This document shows, piece after piece, positions 2,633 to 30,249 of a DNA stretch of 32,000 bases; position 1 is the stretch's first letter; each line of letters starts with the position of its first letter. Below the pieces are notes generated by a model, which did not search any database, was not told the DNA's origin, and saw nothing but the letters and a program-made list of their open reading frames with translations. The position numbers and the translations under genes are program-made. Origin of the DNA: Bdellovibrionales bacterium (lineage in GTDB: Bacteria; Bdellovibrionota; Bdellovibrionia; Bdellovibrionales; UBA1609); assembly GCA_963692945.1 (NCBI GenBank), contig OY843585.1:750001-782000 (forward strand), given 5' to 3'.

Positions 2633-3238
2633 ATGAAATTTTTTCTACTTTTTATAGGGATTTTTTATCTTGTTTCTTGTTCTTGTTCTGGTGGAAGAAA
2701 TCGGACAGATTCAGAGTATATGTTAGATATGATGAAGCAAAGATCTATCAAGGCTCAAGAGGGAACAGATGAGGGGCAGATTTTAATGAAACTTCCTCCT
2801 GAGGGAACGAGAGCAAGAAACCGAAGTTACTATCCTTTTCCTAAAAATCCTTTAAAAGCTGATCAACTTAAAAATCCTTTGCGGTTGACACCAGATGTTT
2901 TTTCTCAAGGGAAACTTTATTACCAAAGATATTGTATTTACTGCCATGGGAGTCAAGGTGATGCTGGAGAGGGAGCAAGTGTTGCACCTAAGATGATTAT
3001 TAAACCCCTGTCTTTGATTACAAATAAAGCCAAGTCGTATAGTGATGGAAGAATTTATCATATTATTTATAATGGTCAGGGATTGATGGGTTCTTATCGT
3101 ACCCAGTTAACAACTTCGGAACAGGTTTTGTTAAGTCATTATGTAAAAGGTCAGGGGGAAGTAAAGTACAAAGGTTCCAAACAAATTTGGTCTCTTGTTC
3201 ATTATGTTAGATTTTTACAAGGAAAATCTAGGAAGTAA
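2633..3238 (+). CDS. actE: Alternative complex III subunit ActE, monohaem cytochrome c lipoprotein
   Basis: It has a signal peptide with lipobox LVSC and a single CxxCH haem-binding motif (CIYCH). Its ATG immediately follows the actD stop. Confidence 0.75.
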   Translation: MKFFLLFIGIFYLVSCSCSGGRNRTDSEYMLDMMKQRSIKAQEGTDEGQILMKLPPEGTRARNRSYYPFPKNPLKADQLKNPLRLTPDVFSQGKLYYQRYCIYCHGSQGDAGEGASVAPKMIIKPLSLITNKAKSYSDGRIYHIIYNGQGLMGSYRTQLTTSEQVLLSHYVKGQGEVKYKGSKQIWSLVHYVRFLQGKSRK

Positions 3239-3248
3239 GGGGAAGTCT

Positions 3249-4433
3249 ATGAGTATGCCAGTTATAAAATTTGATTTTTGTGATAAAACAAAAAGAAATT
3301 TATCTATTTTTATGTTTATTGGTTTTGTAACTTTTATCAGTGGCTTGTTTTTAGACAGTCAAAGAGTTTGGTTTTCTTTTTTAGTCTCTTCTCTTTTTGT
3401 TTTGTTTTTAAGTTTAGGTGGTCTTTTTTTCACAAGCATTCAACATGTGTCTAAAGCAGGTTGGAGCGTAAACATTCGTCGTATTATGGAGGGCTTTGGA
3501 GCTTATATACCTATAGGTTGTATAGCCGCTTTATTTTTAGTCTTATCAGGAGATCAGCTTTATGTATGGTTTAACTCTTCCGAAGTGGCTAAAGATTCTC
3601 TTTTAGTTCATAAGTCTTCTTATTTGAATCCTATCTTTTTTATTGTTCGGTTGCTGGTTTTTTCTGCCATTTGGATTGTATTTTACAAACTGCTGACTCA
3701 ATTGTCTTTAAATCAAGATAAAACAGGTGATGAATCTCTTACTAGTAAATCTGTATCTTACTCTATTGCTTTTTTAGCTCTTTTCACACTTAGTTTTACT
3801 TTTTTTACAGTAGATACTTTAATGAGTTTAGAGCCTCATTGGTTTTCTACCGTTTTTGGTGTGTATGCCTTTGCAGGACTTTTCCAATCTTTTTTAGCTG
3901 CTTTGATACTTTTTATTATTTATTTTCGTAGAAAAGGTTATCTCAAAAAAGAACTTGTAAATGCCAATCATTTACATGATTTGGGAAAATTTCTTTTTGG
4001 CTTTACTATTTTTTGGGCTTACATTGCTTTTAGTCAGTATATGCTTGTTTGGTATGCGAATTTACCTGAAGAAGCCGTTTATTATTTACATCGCTCTCAA
4101 TATGATTGGTTGTGGGTTTCTTTGGCTTTGATTGTGTTTAAATTTATTGTTCCGTTTATTTATCTTCTTCCTCGTTGGGTGAAAAGAGATGAGTCTTCTT
4201 TGATTGTTGTAAGTGTTCTTATTTTAGTCATGCAATATGTAGATATTTACTGGATGGTTTATCCAAATTATGATTCAAAGGATATTCATTTTGGTTTTAT
4301 AGAGGTAGGTGTTTTTATAGGATTTATAGGATTGTTTTTATACACTTTACTTCGTTTTTTTAGTTTACATCCAATGGTGGCTTTAAAAGATCCAAGGCAG
4401 AAAGAATCTTTAGATCATCATGTGACTTATTAA
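3249..4433 (+). CDS. actF: Alternative complex III subunit ActF (second NrfD-like polytopic membrane subunit)
   Basis: This is a hydrophobic multi-TM protein. The ATG at 3249 (MSMPVIKF...) is preceded by AAGGGGAAG and follows the actE stop. The ORF-track start at 3195 would overlap actE by 44 nt and is less likely. Confidence 0.7.
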   Translation: MSMPVIKFDFCDKTKRNLSIFMFIGFVTFISGLFLDSQRVWFSFLVSSLFVLFLSLGGLFFTSIQHVSKAGWSVNIRRIMEGFGAYIPIGCIAALFLVLSGDQLYVWFNSSEVAKDSLLVHKSSYLNPIFFIVRLLVFSAIWIVFYKLLTQLSLNQDKTGDESLTSKSVSYSIAFLALFTLSFTFFTVDTLMSLEPHWFSTVFGVYAFAGLFQSFLAALILFIIYFRRKGYLKKELVNANHLHDLGKFLFGFTIFWAYIAFSQYMLVWYANLPEEAVYYLHRSQYDWLWVSLALIVFKFIVPFIYLLPRWVKRDESSLIVVSVLILVMQYVDIYWMVYPNYDSKDIHFGFIEVGVFIGFIGLFLYTLLRFFSLHPMVALKDPRQKESLDHHVTY

Positions 4434-8906: not shown

Positions 8907-10187
8907 TTAATCTTGATGAAATTGAGTCGGGATTTCTTTATTGGCTTTAGCTCCTAGTTTTTTAATATTTTCTATTTTTTGTATGAGATTGCCTCGGCCA
9001 GATTCCAATTTATTGATGGCTGAGTCGTAAGAGTCACTTGCTGTTTTAATCCCTTTTTCTATTTTTGTCATATCGTCTAGAAAGCCTACAAATTTATCAT
9101 AAAGTTGTCCTGATTCTTTAGCAATTTGTTCTGCATTTTTGTTTTGTTTTTCTATTTTCCAAATAGAGGCAATGGTTCTAAGAGTAGCATACAAGGTGAT
9201 AGGGCTTACAATGACAATAGATTTTTCCCAAGCCTTGTCAAACAAGCCTTGCTTATTTTGAATCGCAAAAGAAAAAACAGGTTCAACGGGGATGAACATT
9301 AAAACAAAATCAGGGGTTTTAAACTCTTCAAGAGAAGTGGTGTATTCTTTTTGAGATAAATTATTGATATGATTTTTTAAAGAAGTAATGATTTTATTTT
9401 TATAGTCTTCCTTTTTTTCTTTATCTGTTTCTATTTCATAATTTTGATAATGTGTGAAAGAGACTTTAGAATCAATAACGATGTATTTTTTATCTGGTAG
9501 TTTAACAATAACATCAGGTCTTAATTTTTGTCCTTTTTCATTTTTTACATCTAAACCTTCAGATTGCACAAAAAACTCTTCATTTTTTCTAAGTCCTGAT
9601 TTTTCTAAAATATTTTCTAAGAGGATTTCACCCCATTGGCCTTGAGTTTTTGTATTTCCTTGTAGAGCTTGGCTAAGGCTGCGAGTTTCATCTCTCATAT
9701 TTTGATTCATGTCTTTAAAACCTTTTATAGTTTCTTGTAAGAATTTTTTACTTCCTTCAAGACTTTCAATAGATTTTTGAAAACCTGTAATATTTTCTTT
9801 AAGAGGTTTGATGAGATTTTCTATAGATTTCTCTGAATTATCTTGGTAAGTTTTTGTTGTTTCTTTGAAAATTTTTTGAGCCATAGATTCAAATTCCAGC
9901 TTTAGTTTTTGAGCCGTTTCTTCTAAAGTTTGTTTTTTATGTTCCAACTCTCTATCTTTTGTTTTAGATTCTGTTTGAAGTCGTGCATTTTCTTCTATAA
10001 GATTTCGTTCCTTTTCTTTGAATTTGTTAGTTTCAAGTTGTAAAGATTCCAAATCTTTTTTTAAAAAATCATTTTCAATTTCTGTTTTGATAGAGTTTTT
10101 ATTATTAGAAGATGATTTTTTAAAAAAGAGAGTGGCTAGGATAAGTCCTAAGAGAGCGCCAATGATAAGACCTATTAAAAAAGACAT
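8907..10187 (-). CDS. rmuC: DNA recombination protein RmuC
   Basis: It has an N-terminal TM helix and a long coiled coil. The C-terminal nuclease-like region (RPDVIVKLPDKKYIVIDSKV, FVLMFIPVEP) is typical of RmuC. Confidence 0.85.
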   Translation of the reverse strand: MSFLIGLIIGALLGLILATLFFKKSSSNNKNSIKTEIENDFLKKDLESLQLETNKFKEKERNLIEENARLQTESKTKDRELEHKKQTLEETAQKLKLEFESMAQKIFKETTKTYQDNSEKSIENLIKPLKENITGFQKSIESLEGSKKFLQETIKGFKDMNQNMRDETRSLSQALQGNTKTQGQWGEILLENILEKSGLRKNEEFFVQSEGLDVKNEKGQKLRPDVIVKLPDKKYIVIDSKVSFTHYQNYEIETDKEKKEDYKNKIITSLKNHINNLSQKEYTTSLEEFKTPDFVLMFIPVEPVFSFAIQNKQGLFDKAWEKSIVIVSPITLYATLRTIASIWKIEKQNKNAEQIAKESGQLYDKFVGFLDDMTKIEKGIKTASDSYDSAINKLESGRGNLIQKIENIKKLGAKANKEIPTQFHQD

Positions 10188-10225
10188 TTTATAAAATTAA
10201 CTTATTTTTTAGACGATAGCAATTA

Positions 10226-10326
10226 CAAAACTCTCGTCCTTCCCTTTTTATTTTTTGAGATTTTTATCGTAAGAGAGGCACTCTTCAAATCTCATTAAAA
10301 TAAGAGTAGGTAACACTAGAGTTTTG
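10226..10326 (+). repeat. Long-hairpin (LH) repeat element, copy A (partly degenerate), with terminal inverted CAAAACTCT.G / C.AGAGTTTTG
   Basis: The sequence runs CAAAACTCTCG...TATCGTAAGAGAGGCACTCTTCAAATCTCATTAAAATAAGAGTAGG...CACTAGAGTTTTG. The core and right arm match copies at 11175-11318 and 27937-28061. The left arm is decayed. Confidence 0.75.
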
Positions 10327-10373
10327 AAAAAAAATATTTACTTTCCAAGTTTTTTATTTTATTTTTAGTAGGT

Positions 10374-10841
10374 ATGAAAAAAGATGTTTTTTACATGCTT
10401 TCTCCCATAGGGAATTTAGAGATTTCTTTAGAAGGAGATAGGCTTTACTCTATTCAAAAAGATTTGCGACAAACTCGCTCTAAAAAAAGATCTCATTCCA
10501 CTGAAACCAATATTTCTAAACGAGTCAAAAAGCAATTGGAAGAGTATTTTAACTCTAAAAGAGATAAATTTTCTATTCCTTTAGCGAAAAGAGGGACAGA
10601 GTTTCAAAGGCAGGTGTGGAAAATTCTGCAAAAAATTCCCTACAATCAAACCAGAACCTATAAGGATATTTCTTTAAAACTTGGTTTTCAAACTAAAGCT
10701 CGTTCTGTGGGTCAAGCTTGTTCTAGAAATCCTTTTTTGATTGTAGTGCCTTGTCATAGAGTTCTTTCTAAACAAGGTTTAGGAGGATTTGCTTTAGGTT
10801 TAAAAGCTAAAAAAACCTTACTTGCTTTAGAAACTTCATAA
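10374..10841 (+). CDS. ogt: Methylated-DNA--protein-cysteine methyltransferase
   Basis: It has the active-site PCHRV and the helix-turn-helix region YKDIS...ARSVGQACSRNP. It is 155 aa long. Confidence 0.9.
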   Translation: MKKDVFYMLSPIGNLEISLEGDRLYSIQKDLRQTRSKKRSHSTETNISKRVKKQLEEYFNSKRDKFSIPLAKRGTEFQRQVWKILQKIPYNQTRTYKDISLKLGFQTKARSVGQACSRNPFLIVVPCHRVLSKQGLGGFALGLKAKKTLLALETS

Positions 10842-10850
10842 TTTTATGAT

Positions 10851-11198
10851 CCTCTCTCATGCGAAAACCAGCAGTTTTTCTCTAGTTCAAACATAAAACT
10901 TTATTTGCGAAAACCAGCAGTTTTTCTCTAGTTCAAACAATTTGCGAAAACCAGCAGTTTTTCTCTAAGCATACCCTCATGCGAAAACTAGTAGGTTTTC
11001 TCTAAGCATACCCTCATGCGAAAACCAGTAGGTTTTCTCTAAGCATACCCTCATGCGAAAACCAGTAGGTTTTCTCTAAGCATACCCTCATGCGAAAACC
11101 AGCAGTTTTTCTCTAGTTCAAACATAAACCTTTATTTGCGAAAACCAGCAGGTTTTCTCTAGTTCAAACAATTTGCGAAAACCAGTAGGTTTTCTCTA
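10851..11198 (+). repeat. Tandem array of 9 small-hairpin (SH) units, GCGAAAACC-AGYA-G(G/T)TTTTCTCTA, with three recurring linker types
   Basis: The 24-nt cores start at 10861, 10907, 10944, 10981, 11018, 11055, 11092, 11138 and 11175, giving spacings of 46-37-37-37-37-37-46-37 bp. The linkers are GTTCAAACATAAA(A/C)CTTTATTT, GTTCAAACAATTT and AGCATACCCTCAT. Confidence 0.9.
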
Positions 11199-11318
11199 GT
11201 TCAAATCATAAACCTATTAAGTAACTCTTATTTTAATGAGATTTGAAGAGCGTCCCTCTTGCGATGAAAAGCTCGTTAAAATAAGAGTAGGAAATACTTT
11301 AATTGAACTAGAGTTTTG
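11199..11318 (-). repeat. Long-hairpin (LH) repeat element, copy B (inverted relative to copies A and C)
   Basis: The 17-bp stem is 11224-11240 / 11272-11288, with one T:G pair. The 31-nt loop is ATTTGAAGAGCGTCCCTCTTGCGATGAAAAG. It is flanked by CTCTAGTTCAAAT and AATTGAACTAGAG and ends in GAGTTTTG, directly abutting the stop codon at 11319-11321. Confidence 0.85.
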
Positions 11319-13079
11319 TTAATGATTCATTTTCTTCATTAAAGATTTAAAATTTGTTTTAAGAAGTTTTATGTCTTCATTTTGTTTTTTATTTTGTGCT
11401 TTAAGAGATTCGTTTTCTTTTTTTAGAGAAGCCAGTTCTCTTTCTAGTTTTTTATTTGTGGATGCTAATTTTTTTTCTGTTTGAAGTTGTGTCTCTTTTA
11501 GTTTTGCCATTTCTTTTGTAATAAAATCTATAGATTTTGTAAAAGACTCTTTTATCTTTGCAAATGATTTTGTAAGAGCCGACACAGACTCTTTAAGAAA
11601 GTTTAGAGTTTTTGTTGTGGAGCCATAAAATTCTTTAAAAGTTTTTATGATAACAGGGATAAGTCCTTGGTAATTTAAACTTAAAGTCTTTTTTGGATCT
11701 GAACCTTCAGACACTAATTCGGGATACTGTTCTTGAACCTCTTGAGCAATTAAACCTATCTGTTTTGTTTGAACTCTATGTTTGTCTTTCCAGTAAAAAG
11801 TTTTAGGATTTAATTTTAAAAGAGAATGAGTTTGATTTTTTAAATCCTTAATCTTGGTTTTGAGTCGTTTATCAGAGTGATGGGTAACTCCACCGTTTAT
11901 CTTTATATCTCCAGCAATATTAACGAATTTTGTTCCTGACATATTCCCTTTAATAAGATTTCCGATATTAAGTTTATTGCTGGCATCGGTTGCTGATAAT
12001 CTCATACCTCCTCCAATCACAATATTATTGCTTCCTGTAGTAGAACCTGATGGTCCAAATTGCGCATTATCACCTAAAGCAATATTATTATTGCCTATTG
12101 TATTTCTAGATCCTGCCTCATGACCTATAAAAACATTAGATCCTCCATTGTTATCCGCACCAGCTCGTCTACCAAAAAAAGTATTGTAACCTCCGCTGAT
12201 ATTATTTAATCCCGTGTTATAACCTATAAAACTGTTGTAATTTCCTGTATTTACTTCTCCAGCTTTATAACCTACAAAAGTCCCTTCACTGCCACCTGTT
12301 CCAACTTCAAAACCAAAAGCCGTGTGCTTATTTGTACTTGCACCTGTTGTCCCACAACCCACAAGAGTTCGCCCGTCTGAGTCTACCTTGTAACATTCTG
12401 GGTCTATACCGCTTCCGCCTTCAATTTTTCCTCCAATCGCATAACATTTTTTATTATTTACAATTTCTTCCCCAACACCTCCAACAACTTTTATTTTGAT
12501 TTTAATGGGAGCTAAAACAGGAAAAATTTTTTCCTTATCCGTTCCATAATAGACGAATAAATCTAAATATCCATCTCTTGAAGTCCCTCTTACCTCACCC
12601 GCTCTAAGTTCTATTTTTTGGATGGTAAGACCATTGTATTCTTTCCAAGTTTCAAAACCAAAAGGAATATTTGTTGTGCGGTATCTAGTCTTGTGAGGGG
12701 CGGCATTTCTATAAGTTAAGACATTATTTCTATAGAGAGCATAGATGTCTTGTTTTGTGTGTCTAATATCTCTAAAGTTTAAGTTTTTTAATATTAACGA
12801 ACAAGCATTTTGGTAAATACAAGTATCTCCTACATTTTTACCTGGAGGTTTAGGACTGTTTAAGGCATTAGGGGGGCAAGTTTCTGTTTGTTCTAACAAA
12901 TGAATGATATCTTCACTCAGTTCAATAGAATTGCTTTTTTGTTGAACTTTTTTTAAAGATCTCATAAGGTTTACTTGGAATTGAGAAATTCCTAAAATAA
13001 CAATGGTTCCAATAGCAGCTGCTGATAAAACACCAATGAGGGAAAATCCAGAATTATTAAGTTTTGAATAATAAGTCAT
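11319..13079 (-). CDS. Chimeric surface fibre protein: prepilin-like N-terminus, Gly/Asn-rich tail-fibre-like repeats, S74-type intramolecular chaperone domain and a coiled-coil tail
   Basis: The N-terminus MTYYSKLNNSG/FSLIGVLSAAAIGTIVILG resembles a type IV prepilin leader plus hydrophobic helix, with Gly in place of Glu5. Residues ~215-395 carry repeats such as FVGYKAGEVNTGNYNSFIGYNTGLNN..NVFIGHEAGSRNTIGNNNIALGDNA. HH-SDKRLKTKIKDL...IGLIAQEVQEQYPELV...LNYQGLIPV matches the self-cleaving chaperone domain of phage tailspikes and fibres. Confidence 0.7.
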   Translation of the reverse strand: MTYYSKLNNSGFSLIGVLSAAAIGTIVILGISQFQVNLMRSLKKVQQKSNSIELSEDIIHLLEQTETCPPNALNSPKPPGKNVGDTCIYQNACSLILKNLNFRDIRHTKQDIYALYRNNVLTYRNAAPHKTRYRTTNIPFGFETWKEYNGLTIQKIELRAGEVRGTSRDGYLDLFVYYGTDKEKIFPVLAPIKIKIKVVGGVGEEIVNNKKCYAIGGKIEGGSGIDPECYKVDSDGRTLVGCGTTGASTNKHTAFGFEVGTGGSEGTFVGYKAGEVNTGNYNSFIGYNTGLNNISGGYNTFFGRRAGADNNGGSNVFIGHEAGSRNTIGNNNIALGDNAQFGPSGSTTGSNNIVIGGGMRLSATDASNKLNIGNLIKGNMSGTKFVNIAGDIKINGGVTHHSDKRLKTKIKDLKNQTHSLLKLNPKTFYWKDKHRVQTKQIGLIAQEVQEQYPELVSEGSDPKKTLSLNYQGLIPVIIKTFKEFYGSTTKTLNFLKESVSALTKSFAKIKESFTKSIDFITKEMAKLKETQLQTEKKLASTNKKLERELASLKKENESLKAQNKKQNEDIKLLKTNFKSLMKKMNH

Positions 13080-13250
13080 TCTTAAAAGATCCTTTATCTT
13101 TAAATTTTAGCATATTTTTCTATTTAAAAAATAAATATCTGTAAAATTATATTACATGTGTTATTTTATGTTAAAGTATCAGAAATAATCAATAAGAAGT
13201 GCTAATGTTTAGAGGTTCCTTTTTCTAAAACATTGTGAAAAAGAGATTTA

Positions 13251-13976
13251 TTATTGAGATTCAGTTAAGGTTGCACCAATAATACCACAAGCGATTCTTT
13301 CTCCAGAATTTCCTGTTGGTTGAGTTTTTAAATCATCTTCTTTTGCATGTACAATAACAGAACGACCTAAAAATTTTCTAAAGTGTCCTGGTAGAACTTT
13401 ATCATAGAGAGCTTCACCTTTTGAATCAGAAGATAGATTTCCTAAATCTCCTGCATGCTTTTCTGGACTAAGAGGGCCTCCATGTAGAGAAGGGGTTCTC
13501 TTTTTATTGAAAAAACTTTTTTTATGTCTATGAGGATGAACTATTAAATGCCCTCCTGCTTTTAAGGCTTTATCTGAACAATCTCCAAATTCATGAACAT
13601 GAAATCCAAACTTTTGATTCGCTTTCAAATTTGTGATTTTTGCTCTTACTCTTACTTTTTTATGATCTGCTTTTTCAAAAATCACAAAACCTTTTGGGCC
13701 TCCAGTATTCACTGGTGTTACATAGGCTTTTCCAGAAAGACCATTTGAGCCACAACAAGATTTTTTAGAATGAGAGCAAGACTTTTTGGAATGAGAGCAA
13801 GATTTTTTAGAATGAGAACAAGACTTTTTAGAATGAGAACAAGATTTTTTAGAATGCTTATGATGTTGTTTGTGATCGGAGTGTTTTTGAGTAGAATGCT
13901 TGTAGGTAGAGTAACAACTCACAAGAAAGGAAAGAGAAAATAATAAACTGGCAATAAAGAAAGACTTTTGAAACAT
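13251..13976 (-). CDS. sodC: Cu,Zn superoxide dismutase lipoprotein with an N-terminal His/Cys-rich tandem-repeat extension
   Basis: It has lipobox LVSC and the SodC motifs GFHVHEFGDCS, GGH, HAGDLGN, VIVHAKEDD and GNSGERIACGII. The N-terminus carries KHSTQKHSDHKQHHKH followed by five SKKSCSH repeats. Confidence 0.9.
   Translation of the reverse strand: MFQKSFFIASLLFSLSFLVSCYSTYKHSTQKHSDHKQHHKHSKKSCSHSKKSCSHSKKSCSHSKKSCSHSKKSCCGSNGLSGKAYVTPVNTGGPKGFVIFEKADHKKVRVRAKITNLKANQKFGFHVHEFGDCSDKALKAGGHLIVHPHRHKKSFFNKKRTPSLHGGPLSPEKHAGDLGNLSSDSKGEALYDKVLPGHFRKFLGRSVIVHAKEDDLKTQPTGNSGERIACGIIGATLTESQ
13755..13856 (-). repeat. In-frame 21-bp tandem repeat, about 5 copies, encoding (SKKSCSH)n inside sodC
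   Basis: The plus strand reads ACAAGA(T/C)TTTTT(A/G)GAATGAGA(G/A) reiterated with a 21-bp period. Confidence 0.85.
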
Positions 13977-14109
13977 TTGTAAACTCCTTTTTGTTTAAAA
14001 AATAACTTAGTTTCAATTTATAAAGGTATTGGTTTAAAAATTCAAGATATTTCTAAAATTTAAAAAAGGCTTGTATTGAAAACTTAATTTACATATCTTG
14101 ATATTTACG

Positions 14110-15045
14110 ATGAACATTTTAAACTCTTATTTTTTAGACTTTTTAAAGGTCACAGAACAGAGTGCTTTGGCTTGTTATCCTCTTATAGGAAAGGGAGATG
14201 CTCAGGCTGCCGATCAAGCGGCTGTGGATGCAATGAGATTGTATTTTCAAGAACTGCAAATGGATGTTCAAATTGTTATAGGTGAGGGGGAAAGAGATAA
14301 AGCCCCTCGTCTTTATACAGGAGAACATCTTGGAGATAAAAATTCAGAGATTAAAATAGATGTGGCTGTTGATCCTTTAGAAGGAACAACTCTTTGTGCT
14401 GAAGGAAGAGAGGGTTCCTTATCGGTTATGGCTGTTTCTTTGAGAGGAGGTCTTTTTAAGGCTCCTGATGTCTATATGAAAAAAATAGCTTGTGGTCCAA
14501 AAGCGAAAGGATCTATCAACTTAAAGGCTTCCGTTGTAGATAATATCTTATCCGTTTCAAAGGCTTTAAATAAAAAACCAGAGGATTTAGTTATTGGCGT
14601 TTTAAAAAGAGAACGGCATCAAGACTTAATTCAGTCTATTAGGCAAACAAAAGCTTGTATTCGTCTTGTTGGAGATGGGGATGTTGCACTGGCTTTAGAA
14701 ACAACCCTTCCAAATTCATCTTTAGATCTATTGATTGGAACAGGTGGTGCTCCAGAAGGAGTTTTAGCAGCTGCGGCTTTAAAATGCCTAGGAGGTGATT
14801 TTCAAGGTCAGTTTCTTTATAAAGATGAGAAAGAGAAACAAAGAGCAGATCAATGTGGTGTAAAAGATTTACATAAAATTTGGACTATGGAAGAATTGGT
14901 TTCTGGAAATGTTCTTTTTTATGCGACGGGAGTCACTAAAGGTTCACTTTTGGATGGAATTCATAAAAAAGGAAATCTTTGGGAAAGTCATTCTCTTATT
15001 TTGAGTAACCAGGTGAGAAGAGATATAAAAAATTATCATATATAA
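14110..15045 (+). CDS. glpX: Class II fructose-1,6-bisphosphatase (GlpX type)
   Basis: The N-terminus LDFLKVTEQSALACYPLIGKGDAQAADQAAVDAMR and the motifs VDPLEGT, LVGDGDV and GTGGAPEGV fit GlpX. The ATG at 14110 is preferred over the TTG at 14098. Confidence 0.9.
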   Translation: MNILNSYFLDFLKVTEQSALACYPLIGKGDAQAADQAAVDAMRLYFQELQMDVQIVIGEGERDKAPRLYTGEHLGDKNSEIKIDVAVDPLEGTTLCAEGREGSLSVMAVSLRGGLFKAPDVYMKKIACGPKAKGSINLKASVVDNILSVSKALNKKPEDLVIGVLKRERHQDLIQSIRQTKACIRLVGDGDVALALETTLPNSSLDLLIGTGGAPEGVLAAAALKCLGGDFQGQFLYKDEKEKQRADQCGVKDLHKIWTMEELVSGNVLFYATGVTKGSLLDGIHKKGNLWESHSLILSNQVRRDIKNYHI

Positions 15046-15138: not shown

Positions 15139-15528
15139 ATGAAATTAAAAAAATATATAATTTATAGCCTTTTCTTATCTTGTTTATTTTCAGGGTTTTT
15201 AGGTGTTGCTCAAACAACTGAAGAAGATGAACTGGATTTTTTATTTGGTCTCTCGGGAGAAGAAATCACCTGTGATAATATAACAGATGTTTTTATAGAG
15301 TATAATAACACTATAAAATTACTTACGGATGTTTTTAGCAAATCTCTTTCTAATATGTCTGTTTTTATGAATGATGTTCATAAAAAGGGTCAGATAAAAA
15401 AATCAGATTGGGCTGCCAAAAAAAGTCAAATTAAAGAAGCGGAAATTATTATGGATGAAAACGCATATCAGATATTACAAAAAGGTGAAGATATTCAGTC
15501 CATTTTACAAGAATGTTTAAACCCATAA
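15139..15528 (+). CDS. Hypothetical secreted protein (signal peptide, acidic, helical)
   Basis: This is a 129-aa ORF with an N-terminal hydrophobic signal-like segment, MKLKKYIIYSLFLSCLFSGFLGVAQ. I do not recognise any family. Confidence 0.5.
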   Translation: MKLKKYIIYSLFLSCLFSGFLGVAQTTEEDELDFLFGLSGEEITCDNITDVFIEYNNTIKLLTDVFSKSLSNMSVFMNDVHKKGQIKKSDWAAKKSQIKEAEIIMDENAYQILQKGEDIQSILQECLNP

Positions 15529-19980: not shown

Positions 19981-20421
19981 ATGGACTATCAAAAACGAAA
20001 GATTCATAATTTAGAAGAGCTTAAAATTTTTTCTAAAGATATTGTTCAAGAGATCAAAAAACCTCAACTGCTTTTGATGCAAGGCCCTTTAGGTGTTGGA
20101 AAAACACAATGTGTTCATTTTATAAATGAATGTTTTGGTGTTTCTAAAAAAGACATTTGCTCTCCTAGTTTCTCCATTATAAATACCTATAAAAGTCCAA
20201 AATCCATTATATCTCATATTGATTTTTTTCGTCTTCAAGATAAGCAGGATTTAGAATCTACAGGCATTTGGGATGTTTTTCTTGATTCCCAAATTGTTTT
20301 TATAGAGTGGGCTGATCTTTTTCAAGTGCAATGGCCAGATCATTGGAATAAATTGTTTTTATTTTTTGAGTTCTCCAAAGAGGAAGAAGATGTGAGATGG
20401 ATTAAGTGGGGAAGTTGTTAA
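19981..20421 (+). CDS. tsaE: tRNA threonylcarbamoyladenosine (t6A) biosynthesis ATPase TsaE
   Basis: It has the P-loop GPLGVGKT, SPSFSIINTY, H.D.FRL and IEWA motifs and is 146 aa long. Its stop shares the tetranucleotide TTAA with the convergent gene's stop. Confidence 0.85.
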   Translation: MDYQKRKIHNLEELKIFSKDIVQEIKKPQLLLMQGPLGVGKTQCVHFINECFGVSKKDICSPSFSIINTYKSPKSIISHIDFFRLQDKQDLESTGIWDVFLDSQIVFIEWADLFQVQWPDHWNKLFLFFEFSKEEEDVRWIKWGSC

Positions 20422-21989
20422 GCCGCTAATTTTTTAGTGTTTGATTTATTAAAGTGATCTAAAACTTGCTGTTCTATTTTTTTAACGGATTGTTTATCTA
20501 AGTTGGTCATAGAAATTCCTATAAAAACAAACTTTAATTTATTCATTTCATCTTGAATAGGAATAGCTGTTACATGTTTTGGATATTGAGACCAGCCGAT
20601 ACTATTAAAGAATTTTTGATTAACCTCTGTATCTACAACAAAACCATGATAGGAATGTCCCTTTCCTACAATTTTAAAAATAGAAAAATCGTTTAAGTTG
20701 GCTGCTGTTTTTGTTTCCATTTCAGGTTTTATTTCAATACGACCTGACCAATTTTGAAAGAGTAAATCGTTATTTCTACTTTTCAAAATAAGAGATCCTA
20801 TAAATTGAGATTTGACTTGGTTAAAAAAGTCATCATGATTTTCTTTGTATTTAATAGTAAAATTGGTTTTTGTTAAATTTGTAATTTCTGGGTTTGTTTT
20901 TGTAATTTCTGGGTTTGTTTTTTCAGAAGAGAGAGTCACTTTAGGAGGTGCTTCTTTTTGAATAGGCTTTGGAGTTATTTTTGTGATTTCTAGGTTTGTT
21001 TTTGTAATTTCTGGGTTTATTTTTTCAGAAGAGAGAGTCACTTTAGGAGGTGCTTCTTTTTGAATAGGCTTTGGGGTTAAATTTGTAATTTCTAGGTTTG
21101 TTTTTGTAATTTCTGGGTTTGTTTTTTCAGAAGAGAGAGTCGCTTTAGGAGGTGCTTCTTTTTGAATAGGCTTTGGGCTTACTTTTATAATTTCTGAATC
21201 TGTTTTTTCAGAAATTGTTTTTGGATTTAAAATGATTTCTTTTTGTTTAGATTCATTTTTTAGTAAAGGGTTTTTTATTATAGAAGTGATGTGATCTAAG
21301 AAATTTTTAGATTTTGTAGATTTGATGGTATTTGTTTTTTTTGTACTACTCATTTGAGAGTACTCCGCTTTTTTGATAAAATCGTCTTCTTCTGAAGGTG
21401 TATCTATTGTTATACCTTTCATATAGAAAGGCGTAGATTCTCTTGTTTGATGACTTCTTTCAGGATCGGTGCTTTCATCTGGAGAAAAAGAGATACGTTC
21501 TTCCTCTATTTCAGGTAAAGAAGTGTCATTATTTAAGGAAGTAGGTGCTTTTATAGGGATTTCTTTCTCTGTAGATTTTTGAAAGTCTTTTATAGATTTC
21601 CAATGCATACGGAGAGCTAAATCTGTTACAAGCACAAAACGATGCTTAAAAGACCAAGACTTATGGTTTTTAGGTTTTTCTAGACAAGCTATAAAAACAG
21701 TATCTTCCCATATATAAATAGGTGCTATTTCTTCATTCCATCTGTGTAGATTTTTTACTTTACTCCACTGGCTTTGATTCATTAAATTTTGTTCAAAGAA
21801 AGTATTTTGGACAATGGGTATATTGTAAAAATTGGAAGCCCAGTCAAAGTACTTCTTTCTATCAATGATTTTTTGAGTTAAAGACCAAAGTAGAAAACTT
21901 TGGTTATTATTTGATTGATTCCAATCTTCTAGGTTTTTTTCAGAAACATTTAAATCAATTGTCCAAGCATAATCTTTAATAGGATTCAT
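20418..21989 (-). CDS. Hypothetical protein with a central 3 x 34-aa Pro/Lys/Glu/Thr-rich tandem repeat; the N-terminus is faintly T2SSE_N/MshEN-like
   Basis: This is a long ORF of 523 aa. The repeat PKPIQKEAPPKVTLSSEKTNPEITKTNLEITNLT occurs three times. The globular N- and C-terminal domains are not confidently recognised. Confidence 0.6.
   Translation of the reverse strand: MNPIKDYAWTIDLNVSEKNLEDWNQSNNNQSFLLWSLTQKIIDRKKYFDWASNFYNIPIVQNTFFEQNLMNQSQWSKVKNLHRWNEEIAPIYIWEDTVFIACLEKPKNHKSWSFKHRFVLVTDLALRMHWKSIKDFQKSTEKEIPIKAPTSLNNDTSLPEIEEERISFSPDESTDPERSHQTRESTPFYMKGITIDTPSEEDDFIKKAEYSQMSSTKKTNTIKSTKSKNFLDHITSIIKNPLLKNESKQKEIILNPKTISEKTDSEIIKVSPKPIQKEAPPKATLSSEKTNPEITKTNLEITNLTPKPIQKEAPPKVTLSSEKINPEITKTNLEITKITPKPIQKEAPPKVTLSSEKTNPEITKTNPEITNLTKTNFTIKYKENHDDFFNQVKSQFIGSLILKSRNNDLLFQNWSGRIEIKPEMETKTAANLNDFSIFKIVGKGHSYHGFVVDTEVNQKFFNSIGWSQYPKHVTAIPIQDEMNKLKFVFIGISMTNLDKQSVKKIEQQVLDHFNKSNTKKLAA
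20871..21178 (-). repeat. 102-bp in-frame tandem repeat, 3 copies, inside the 523-aa ORF, with an internal (N[PL]EITKT) sub-repeat
   Basis: The marker TCAGAAGAGAGAGTC(A/G)CTTTAGGAGGTGCTTCTTTTTGAATAGGCTTTGG recurs with its C at 20924, 21026 and 21128. The period is exactly 102 bp. Confidence 0.9.
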
Positions 21990-27936: not shown

Positions 27937-28061
27937 CAAAACTCTAGTTCAAACAAGTATTTCCTACTCTTATTTTAATGAGCTTTTCATCGCAAGAGGG
28001 ACGCTCTTCAAATCTCATTAAAATAAGAGTTACTTAATAGGCTTATTGTTTGAACTAGAGA
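27937..28061 (+). repeat. Long-hairpin (LH) repeat element, copy C
   Basis: The outer arms are CTCTAGTTCAAAC (27942-27954) and GTTTGAACTAGAG (28049-28061). The 17-bp perfect stem is 27966-27982 / 28014-28030, with a 31-nt loop. The region 27937-28080 is the near-identical reverse complement of 11175-11318. Confidence 0.9.
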
Positions 28062-28128
28062 AAACCTTCTGGTTTTTGCACCTGACTTATAGAACACTGG
28101 CAAAAAACAGAGTTTTTCTCTAGCTCAC
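28049..28128. repeat. Two SH units in head-to-head orientation between LH copies C and D
   Basis: GTTTGAACTAGAGAAAACCTTCTGGTTTTTGCA is a reversed unit. A 17-bp centre follows, and then TGGCAAAAAACAGAGTTTTTCTCTAGCTCAC, a degenerate forward unit. Confidence 0.7.
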
Positions 28129-29418: not shown

Positions 29419-30249
29419 ATGTTTAGTGTTTTATTCTTACTGACTTTAGTTTCTTTTTCTGAAGCTTCCAACCTTCCTGATGACCAAAAAGATCAAAAGA
29501 GAAATTGGTCTGTAGGTTTATCTCATAGTTTATCCTTTGGTGCTTATTATGAGGCAAGAGCTAAAAATTCTAATGGTTTGTCCTTTTCCTACAACTATAA
29601 AGACTTTAAATTTTCAGCGAAAGGTTCTTATGTTTTTGATCCTTTTGGATTTGTATCTGATCCAAGTTATCTTGGTTTAACGGATATTTCATTGGGTGCC
29701 TCTAAGCCTCTAAAATCTATGGAGAACTTTTTAGGTTTTAAATGGAATGCTTCTGCAGGTTTGGTGTTACCTACAGCTAAAAAGTCTTTAAAAAAAGGGA
29801 AGTATTTTGCTCTTTTTGGTAGATTGTCTCACTATCATAAATTTAAAGATAAATTTTCTTTTGGCTTTAATCATGTTTTGTATTCTGATTCTTATAAATA
29901 CCGAACAGATGTGTCAGGAAATTCAAATCGTTTAGCAGCCTCTTCTCATGAAGTTCAATTGACTGGGACATTTAACAAGTTAACCCTTTCAGGGACAGGA
30001 ACTTTTTATATCTACACTTATTTTGCAGACCTTGACCCTGACCCAAATGTCTCAGATACCAAATTAAAGTTTAAAGGGTATCAAGGAGCCAATTTTAATT
30101 TGTCTTATATGGTATGGGCTAAACATCATCTTAGGGGTTTTATGGGATGGAGTATCAATGTCCCTATCATTTCTCCTATTTTAACAGGTTTCCCTATTTT
30201 TAAGAAAAGATATTGGGTGTATAATCTTGGTCTAAGTTGGGCTATTTAA
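29419..30249 (+). CDS. Hypothetical outer-membrane beta-barrel protein
   Basis: It has a signal peptide (MFSVLFLLTLVSFSEA). Alternating hydrophobic and aromatic beta-strand patterns run throughout (SFSYNY, KFSAKGSYVF, LTLSGTGTFYIY, VYNLGLSWAI). I do not recognise any family. Confidence 0.55.
   Translation: MFSVLFLLTLVSFSEASNLPDDQKDQKRNWSVGLSHSLSFGAYYEARAKNSNGLSFSYNYKDFKFSAKGSYVFDPFGFVSDPSYLGLTDISLGASKPLKSMENFLGFKWNASAGLVLPTAKKSLKKGKYFALFGRLSHYHKFKDKFSFGFNHVLYSDSYKYRTDVSGNSNRLAASSHEVQLTGTFNKLTLSGTGTFYIYTYFADLDPDPNVSDTKLKFKGYQGANFNLSYMVWAKHHLRGFMGWSINVPIISPILTGFPIFKKRYWVYNLGLSWAI

Follow-up and report, generated by a model that had tools for sequence, protein, structure and literature searches.

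How a phage-type fibre comes to be joined to what looks like the start of a type IV pilin, and whether such a product is carried by a pilus, is the question raised by a fibre-pilin gene in a 32,000-nucleotide stretch of DNA, hereafter the window, that spans positions 750,001 to 782,000 of contig OY843585.1 (GenBank assembly GCA_963692945.1). The source is a reduced (~1.56 Mb; 1,561,448 bp), low-GC (~31%) metagenome-assembled genome (MAG) of the Bdellovibrionales/Oligoflexia. An earlier interpretation based on the letters alone (the sequence-only reading) had recognized here a 586-aa open reading frame (ORF) fusing a prepilin-like N-terminus to tail-fibre-type repeats and a self-cleaving S74 chaperone domain, and had proposed a pilus- or membrane-anchored trimeric adhesin. 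The ORF is as described, every statement of that reading about the sequence was confirmed, and its overall interpretation is supported, display at a pilus tip and adhesion being what we infer from it. On balance, the gene product is probably a modular type IV (minor) pilin with a C-terminal phage-type trimeric fibre that is folded by its own chaperone.

Origins of the two halves

The protein begins MTYYSKLNNSG|FSLIGVLSAAAIGTIVILGIS, with Gly11 at position -1 and Phe12 at +1 of a prepilin-like G/F junction, followed by a hydrophobic α1N segment (FSLIGVLSAAAIGTIVILGIS) that forms a 21-residue hydrophobic helix start. Prepilin peptidases require Gly at -1, and Gly11 is invariant or nearly so across the family alignments. 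At +5, the window copy has Gly16 in place of the usual Glu5, as the sequence-only reading had pointed out. The prepilin assignment of this copy is convincing because of its family relatives, and not because of its own weak motif. Relatives with the same layout have canonical prepilin starts (for example, NKIKG|FSLIEILVGMSLLGILTG and KEKG|FSLIEVLAAVGVA), and the arrangement K/R-G|F-S-L-I-E plus hydrophobic helix is present in P0016, P0018, P0020 to P0023, P0026, P0032, P0033, P0065, and P0101. A search with the N_methyl model (PF07963), suggested earlier as a check, gives a split outcome: the window copy falls below the cut-off, but 12 of 15 family N-domains match at E ≤ 0.01 (best 2.3e-6), with TIGR02532 matched by 6 of the 15. 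When a profile of the N-domain is compared with the whole PDB, all significant matches are type IV pilins, headed by Geobacter PilA-N (7TGG, E 3.7e-5) and followed by 9EGP and FimA (3SOK); PilE1 and TcpA match more weakly, and pilins make up 8 of the 9 matches up to E 1. A generic Sec signal anchor, the alternative that the sequence-only reading had itself set out for this N-terminus, fits neither the canonical KG|FSLIE of the homologues nor these profile matches to solved pilins.

The N-domain family is large. Against 1.84 billion representative proteins, the profile finds 2858 matches at E ≤ 1e-3, of which 222 remain at E ≤ 1e-10 and 53 at E ≤ 1e-30, and the complete sequences examined among the best 150 mostly start G|[FILVM]-x-L-[IV]-E. 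Glu stands at +5 in 53 of the 70 motif-recognized relatives and in most of the complete sequences that the motif search missed, and Gly at this position, as in the window copy, is found in 12 relatives among the best 150 matches. Because the N-domain is fused to S74 in some members (30 of 70 long ones have an S74-like C-terminus) and to other C-termini in the remainder, it behaves as a carrier module. At the level of the family, these comparisons establish that the N-terminus is of prepilin type and homologous to the canonical pilin N-termini of relatives.

The helix leads into a Cys-containing globular region, as had been described; the cysteines of the protein stand at residues 68, 87, 93, 212, 229, and 242, with Cys68 and Cys212 invariant in the family alignments. 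For residues 1–245, AlphaFold gives from a 15-sequence alignment a model with a mean pLDDT (predicted local distance difference test) of 43.9, which places a helix at residues 14–63, with low confidence, ahead of about eight strands. No Pfam or NCBIfam model covers the head (residues 64–220). It defines a sizeable family (proteins P0121 to P0263), to which the 222 clusters (E ≤ 1e-10) and 2858 clusters (E ≤ 1e-3) of the profile search belong. In the linker that follows, G222, C229, G241, and C242 do not vary across the family alignments, and it is at this junction, at about residue 222, that phage homology starts.

The Gly/Asn-rich, tail-fibre-type repeats of the sequence-only reading are found at about residues 246–370, as some six units of 16–19 residues with the pattern N-x-F-x-G-x-x-A-G-x-x-N-x-x-G. 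AlphaFold predicts for them a regular solenoid with one strand per ~16-residue repeat (pLDDT 85–89 over residues 264–334), and PHROG tail-fibre families match residues ~230–510. Among aligned family members, the repeat region measures 125–399 aa and the pre-cleavage segment behind it 31–91 aa, the window protein being the shortest in both cases; the latter segment, with a pLDDT below 50 in the monomer model, would form the distal end of the mature fibre. The proposed S74 domain with its cleavage-type Ser motif is borne out by sequence and by fold. Pfam Peptidase_S74 (PF13884) matches residues 402–456 (E 1.7e-14, 54.3 bits vs. a cut-off of 22), and the SDKRLK motif, encoded at 11859–11876, has an intact dyad of Ser402 (11874–11876) and Lys407 (11859–11861); when 41 S74 proteins are aligned, this Ser and Lys alone are invariant in the motif region. 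The AlphaFold model of residues 225–586 has a mean pLDDT of 81, exceeding 90 from about residue 404 on. With Foldseek, it matches the intramolecular chaperone auto-processing (ICA) domain of MyRF (7DC3; E 7e-4, template modelling score 0.70, root-mean-square deviation 2.2 Å), then the chaperones of endoNF (3GW6) and GA-1 (3GUD), and 210 viral models at E ≤ 1e-3, which are named as gp37, neck appendage or ICA-domain proteins. By sequence, the solved structures closest to the S74 part are the fibre end of phage S16 gp37 (6F45) and the MyRF ICA domain.

The end of the protein had been read as a coiled coil of ~85 aa. A long helix is indeed predicted there, as a single uninterrupted one at residues 470–585 (pLDDT above 90), but its assigned length is 116 residues and the shorter figure does not stand. 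The helix has weak matches to coiled-coil Pfam families and, given the AlphaFold prediction and its composition, is presumed to form a trimeric coiled coil. By analogy with solved relatives, the C-terminal half may be described as a phage-type self-chaperoned fibre, expected to trimerize and to cleave itself at Ser402. Some sources name homologues as trimeric autotransporter adhesins. That designation was rejected for the window protein, which has no outer-membrane β-barrel anchor: its C-terminus consists of S74 and helix, no YadA anchor is matched by Pfam, and only the repeat motif resembles head repeats.

The distribution of database matches follows the division of the protein. Viral matches, to more than 418 IMG/VR contigs and to 261 GenBank phages, fall essentially only on residues ~222–502, at 28–36% identity; the signal/helix region lies outside every viral alignment, the two longest of which begin at residues 137 and 202. 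On this distribution, the protein is a true chimera, as had been claimed, and not a phage remnant. Were it instead a tail-fibre gene left behind by a phage, prophage or tailocin, with a pilin-like N-terminus arisen by chance, the GenBank, IMG/VR, and PHROG matches to the fibre half would be accounted for, as would its fold matches to phage gp37 and neck-appendage proteins. The same origin leaves the rest of the evidence aside: viral matches to the N-terminal 220 residues are essentially nil, the virion-attachment N-terminal domain common to phages was not found in the window protein, and the N-domain is a conserved family (222+ clusters) with canonical prepilin motifs. Furthermore, no phage gene was recognized among the window ORFs of at least 100 aa, in agreement with the sequence-only reading, and the prophage or tailocin context that it had asked about in relatives is found neither at the window nor at six related loci (L001, L004, L005, and L007 to L009). 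Lastly, multiple intact copies are kept in reduced genomes of 1.2–1.8 Mb. With no phage gene cluster and no phage-type N-terminus, the prophage-remnant origin was rejected, and we give it hardly any credence.

Evidence for and against a pilus role

Several observations weigh against a pilus subunit. The window copy scores 16.5–18 bits with N_methyl, vs. a cut-off of 21.2 (E 0.002–0.006), and its leader holds one Lys only. A Foldseek search with the low-confidence N-domain model (pLDDT 44) gave no significant match, and the pilin-type head is only presumed. Neither a prepilin peptidase gene nor any gene of a pilus machinery was found in the 32-kb window, where no ORF of at least 100 aa is recognizable as a pilus gene, and the fibre-pilin gene is solitary there, without the adjoining pilin or Cys-rich partner gene seen in relatives. 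There are two paralogues on the same contig, which together with the window gene make a set of three: P0002 has a degenerate motif (G|SAIVS), and P0004, as called, has neither signal nor helix, so that pilin function could be decaying in the source genome. In addition, cleavage, trimerization, pilus incorporation, and ligand binding are all steps that we infer.

Some of these observations would suit a fibre of the cell envelope that never becomes part of a pilus, with the prepilin-like helix acting only as an inner-membrane signal-anchor or export signal and the S74-matured trimer as a periplasm-spanning or surface adhesin. The sub-threshold N_methyl score of the window copy, the degenerate or missing motifs of P0002 and P0004 and the lack of pil genes in the window all point that way, and the mosaic adhesive trimeric (MAT) fibres of Bdellovibrio are surface- or vesicle-located without a known pilus link (PMC10769870). 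We consider such a fibre unlikely, if deserving of serious attention. Gly at -1 and Phe at +1 are kept in the window copy, Gly at -1 is nearly invariant in the family, and most relatives have full prepilin motifs including Glu5, which would be hard to explain for a mere anchor; an inner-membrane anchor, moreover, offers no path across the outer membrane. The arrangement of locus L009, on a 1.19-Mb contig, also speaks against it. Here (9239–14794), a gene for a canonical PilA-like pilin (210 aa; 33 bits with N_methyl) is the immediate upstream neighbour, at 130 nt, of two fibre-pilin genes arranged in tandem. These encode P0005 (721 aa) and a paralogue of 871 aa, each with Gly at +5 and a canonical S74. 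Additional N_methyl genes occur within 10 kb in L007 and L008.

The product could instead be a subunit of some other type IV filament, for instance at the tip of a pseudopilus resembling that of type II secretion, or of a Tad/Com-type filament, with a role in secretion or in contact within the envelope. Class III signal peptides are common to all type IV filaments, the weak NCBIfam matches include a "prepilin peptidase-dependent protein," the pseudopilin HpsC and ComGE, and the absence of Glu5 is a hallmark of the GspK-type cap (PMC10191384). We nevertheless hold this assignment to be quite improbable, as gsp, tad, and com genes are not seen in the window or the related loci, the neighbouring pilin of L009 has a PilA-like α1, and an adhesin-like fibre with a phage receptor-binding-type module would have no obvious periplasmic role.

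Copies of the gene differ from each other in a patchwork manner. Between the window protein and P0004, residues 402–500 are 93% identical and residues 67–220 only 12%, and α1 is 80% identical between the window protein and P0003, from another assembly. As read from the sequences, this pattern suggests cassette exchange or gene conversion between paralogues, and it is the cassette-like mosaicism known from phage fibres and Bdellovibrio MAT proteins. Relatives are also found in Bdellovibrionales (GTDB) MAG chromosomes of 1.76 and 1.41 Mb, the former with at least 4–5 copies. Within the OZ251448/OZ241911 lineage, each fibre-pilin gene overlaps by 4 nt a gene for a Cys-rich secreted protein of 361–540 aa, in which the motif C..GY[ST]G.C.Y.C.[DN]G recurs; the one in L004 has a Hint domain at its end (Vint, 29.3 bits vs. 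a cut-off of 27). By analogy with gp38 on gp37 or CofJ on CofB, the Cys-rich protein may be a partner at the tip.

A proposed trimeric fibre at the pilus tip and its precedents

For a modular pilin of this kind, a simple route to the cell surface can be proposed. The precursor would enter the inner membrane with its fibre part in the periplasm, and prepilin peptidase would cut after Gly11. The C-terminal coiled coil and S74 would bring three copies into register and template the β-solenoid from the C-terminal side, and self-cleavage before Ser402 would then free a 185-aa fragment (S74 and helix) and expose the fibre end. In the mature subunits (residues 12–401), the three pilin helices would make up the complex at the very top of a type IV filament, from which its assembly starts, and the major pilin would polymerize beneath this trimeric fibre-pilin cap. 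The fibre would hence be carried out at the pilus tip, where it could bind a surface structure on a target cell (prey or host), and the several mosaic paralogues per genome would amount to a repertoire of tips.

Individual steps of this route have been documented elsewhere. S74 self-cleavage has been demonstrated for the Bdellovibrio fibre Bd3182 (PMC10769870), and modular pilins have been proposed to be tip-exposed (PMC8179133). The statement of the sequence-only reading that capping minor (pseudo)pilins do without Glu5 agrees with published work, in which a subunit devoid of this residue caps the tip complex of type IV filaments, and Glu5 makes its contact with the N-terminus of the subunit above (PMC10191384). 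As there is no subunit above a cap, Gly16 fits a capping role. That reading had also seen a mechanistic tension between pilins that insert as monomers and S74-type fibres that are obligate trimers. The tension is not real, since homotrimeric tip minor pilins are documented, CofB being one (PMC6048534). A tentative extension, which we put forward as a possibility somewhat short of probable, is that the pilus cap is a homotrimer of pilin-fibre fusions, with the phage-derived fibre serving both as assembly initiator and as exchangeable receptor-binding tip, and the mosaic copies kept by reduced-genome Bdellovibrionota as a target-recognition repertoire.

The modules of the window protein had been presented as normally belonging to different machines. 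Their union is not unprecedented. In a 2021 InterPro census of modular pilins, the combination of IPR012902 (N_methyl) and IPR030392 (Peptidase S74) was already counted in 29 proteins, as the sixth commonest architecture (Raynaud et al., 2021, PNAS, PMC8179133), and 7 further census proteins have YadA-like head repeats between N_methyl and S74 (PMC8179133). The census representative of the architecture came from a Clostridiales bacterium, and its S74 part was read as "peptidase activity" (PMC8179133). A search of the open-access literature found no paper characterizing the N_methyl-S74 architecture. For this "pilin-peptidase" architecture, a folding device that cleaves itself is a better interpretation than an enzyme. 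The present family has in common with the modular pilins of Raynaud et al. a class III signal/pilin module and a grafted part ending in S74; it differs in its own Cys-containing N-domain, in its occurrence in reduced Bdellovibrionales/Oligoflexia genomes and in being multi-copy and mosaic, and its window copy, without Glu5, is missed at the N_methyl cut-off. The finding hence adds a variant to kinds already known and reinterprets an architecture that had been catalogued before; it is not a new category. Since Glu5-less members fall under the N_methyl threshold, they are missed in architecture-based censuses.

A second likeness is to the S74 subgroup of MAT fibres, exemplified by Bd3182, which are likewise chromosomal, multi-copy, mosaic, and phage-tail-fibre-like proteins of Bdellovibrio-type bacteria, and whose C-terminal S74 chaperone is self-cleaving and carries the motif S-D-x-x-x-K (SDxxxK; Caulton et al., 2024, PMC10769870). 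They are proposed to recognize target cells (PMC10769870). The two groups appear to diverge at the N-terminus, where MAT proteins have, by published description (PMC10769870), an ordinary Sec signal and a conserved ~130-aa β-rich N-domain, whereas the window protein has a prepilin-type signal and a ~50-residue helix. No MAT protein is recognizable among the best 120 sequence matches of the window protein, few of which bear a source name.

The tip minor pilins CofB and TcpB resemble the product in their plan, with a pilin module, a flexible linker, and β-rich C-terminal domains that homotrimerize (PMC6048534), and their trimer, at the pilus tip, serves both to start assembly and to attach (PMC6048534). 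Neither is among the PDB sequence matches of the window protein or of the N-domain profile, and CofB, unlike the window protein, trimerizes via an H-type lectin domain without a cleavable chaperone and is encoded in a dedicated type IVb (T4b) operon. Phage fibres (endoNF, GA-1, and S16/T4-like gp37) and the MyRF ICA domain, on the other hand, share the S74 sequence, the fold, the Ser/Lys dyad, the β-helical repeats before it, and the helical stalk after it. Here the differences lie in context: phage fibres have N-terminal virion-binding domains and sit in structural gene clusters, as opposed to the pilin module of the window protein and a gene set among housekeeping genes, and in MyRF the membrane anchor is C-terminal to the ICA domain.

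The acquisition of specific adhesive tips by type IV pili is only partly understood, as is target recognition by Bdellovibrio-type bacteria. For MAT fibres, the surface anchor has been explicitly described as unknown, and a possible interplay with type IV pili was raised by the authors themselves (PMC10769870). By joining a pilin carrier to an S74-matured phage-type fibre, the present family provides a testable model for a trimeric, swappable pilus tip. If true, the arrangement would be a "tail fibre on a retractable rope," and would suggest how the S74 fibres of predatory bacteria couple to a pilus.

Genomic surroundings of the fibre-pilin genes

The coordinates of the gene, of the parts of its product and of genes near its relatives are collected in Table 1. 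The start codon of the window gene is immediately preceded by an AAAGGA ribosome-binding site.

Table 1. Positions of the fibre-pilin gene, its modules and promoter-like sequence in the window, and of selected genes at related loci (L numbers).
Feature	Residues	Position	Strand	Basis and remarks
Fibre-pilin gene, whole	1–586	11319..13079	-	ORF, 586-aa precursor; stop codon 11319–11321
Class III (prepilin-type) leader, MTYYSKLNNSG, ending in Gly(-1)	1–11	13047..13079	-	Sequence; family alignments
Pilin α1 helix (Phe12 = +1)	12–63	12891..13046	-	N_methyl match residues 8–31; family profile; AlphaFold
Variable Cys-containing β-rich globular region, presumed pilin head	64–220	12420..12890	-	Alignments; low-confidence AlphaFold model
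Gly-rich linker and Cys229...Cys242 segment (GGSGIDPECYKVDSDGRTLVGCGTT), pilin/fibre junction	221–245	12345..12419	-	Alignments
β-solenoid repeats	246–370	11970..12344	-	Sequence repeats; AlphaFold; PHROG matches
Pre-cleavage segment (LNIGNLIKGNMSGTKFVNIAGDIKINGGVTHH)	371–401	11877..11969	-	Alignment
Peptidase_S74/intramolecular chaperone auto-processing domain	402–470	11670..11876	-	Pfam, AlphaFold, Foldseek
C-terminal helix, 116 residues, Lys/Leu/Glu-rich	471–586	11322..11669	-	AlphaFold
Sigma-70-like promoter, TTAACA-17-TATAAT		13146..13174	-	Consensus scan, 11/12 matches; pattern match only; ~65 nt before ATG
Cys-rich partner genes		L001 12565–13650; L004 11854–13476; L005 11938–13227; L007 12598–13875; L008 12694–14217		
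Ankyrin/Transposase_31/Fic genes		L007 15067–15987, 17107–18135; L008 5966–6862, 14948–16021; L009 8572–9225		

On its 3' side, the gene is bounded by the repeat element that the sequence-only reading had noticed, which is located at 10860–11198, where the 3' ends of ogt and of the fibre gene face each other. It is an array of nine copies of a 25-nt core (TGCGAAAACCAGYAGKTTTTCTCTA), where 0 would be expected by chance, and one extra core copy is found at 28056–28080 on the minus strand. Every core copy holds a 7-bp hairpin, the folding z-score is -5.4, and the array has no match to any Rfam family. Its spacers are of two alternating short types of 12–21 nt; because they are this short and are themselves repeated, an interpretation of the array as a CRISPR-like (clustered regularly interspaced short palindromic repeats) element was rejected.

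The neighbours of the gene in the window are housekeeping genes, among them those for RmuC, Ogt, a Cu/Zn superoxide dismutase, GlpX, TilS, FtsH, GlmM, and TsaE, as well as those for alternative complex III, polyamine synthesis, and ScpAB, to name some. FtsH is 85% identical to a protein recorded from a Bdellovibrionales bacterium and 77–80% identical to Oligoflexia proteins. Among the window ORFs of at least 100 aa, four have no Pfam match, namely 3195–4433 (+, 412 aa), 15139–15528 (+, 129 aa), 20418–21989 (-, 523 aa), and 29419–30249 (+, 276 aa). The periplasmic Cu/Zn superoxide dismutase (13251–13976, minus strand) has an N-terminal extension before Sod_Cu, with a His-rich stretch and five tandem HSKKSCS repeats, which is presumably a metal-binding tail.

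Among reduced-genome relatives, ankyrin-repeat proteins and copies of Transposase_31 are encoded close to fibre-pilin genes, and a Fic protein is encoded in L009; such neighbours hint at eukaryotic hosts rather than, or besides, bacterial prey. A perfect 8-nt tandem array (GTTACATC x 86.8, 100% identity) occupies 8236–8929 of L007, about 1 kb upstream of the fibre-pilin gene, and the fibre genes of L001, L005, and L008 likewise have 8-nt arrays on their upstream side. An array of this kind could act as a slipped-strand, phase-variable element. The 8-nt arrays also yield spurious ORFs (HRYIVTSL..., ALQRYSVT...) and false N-terminal extensions in P0200 and P0242.

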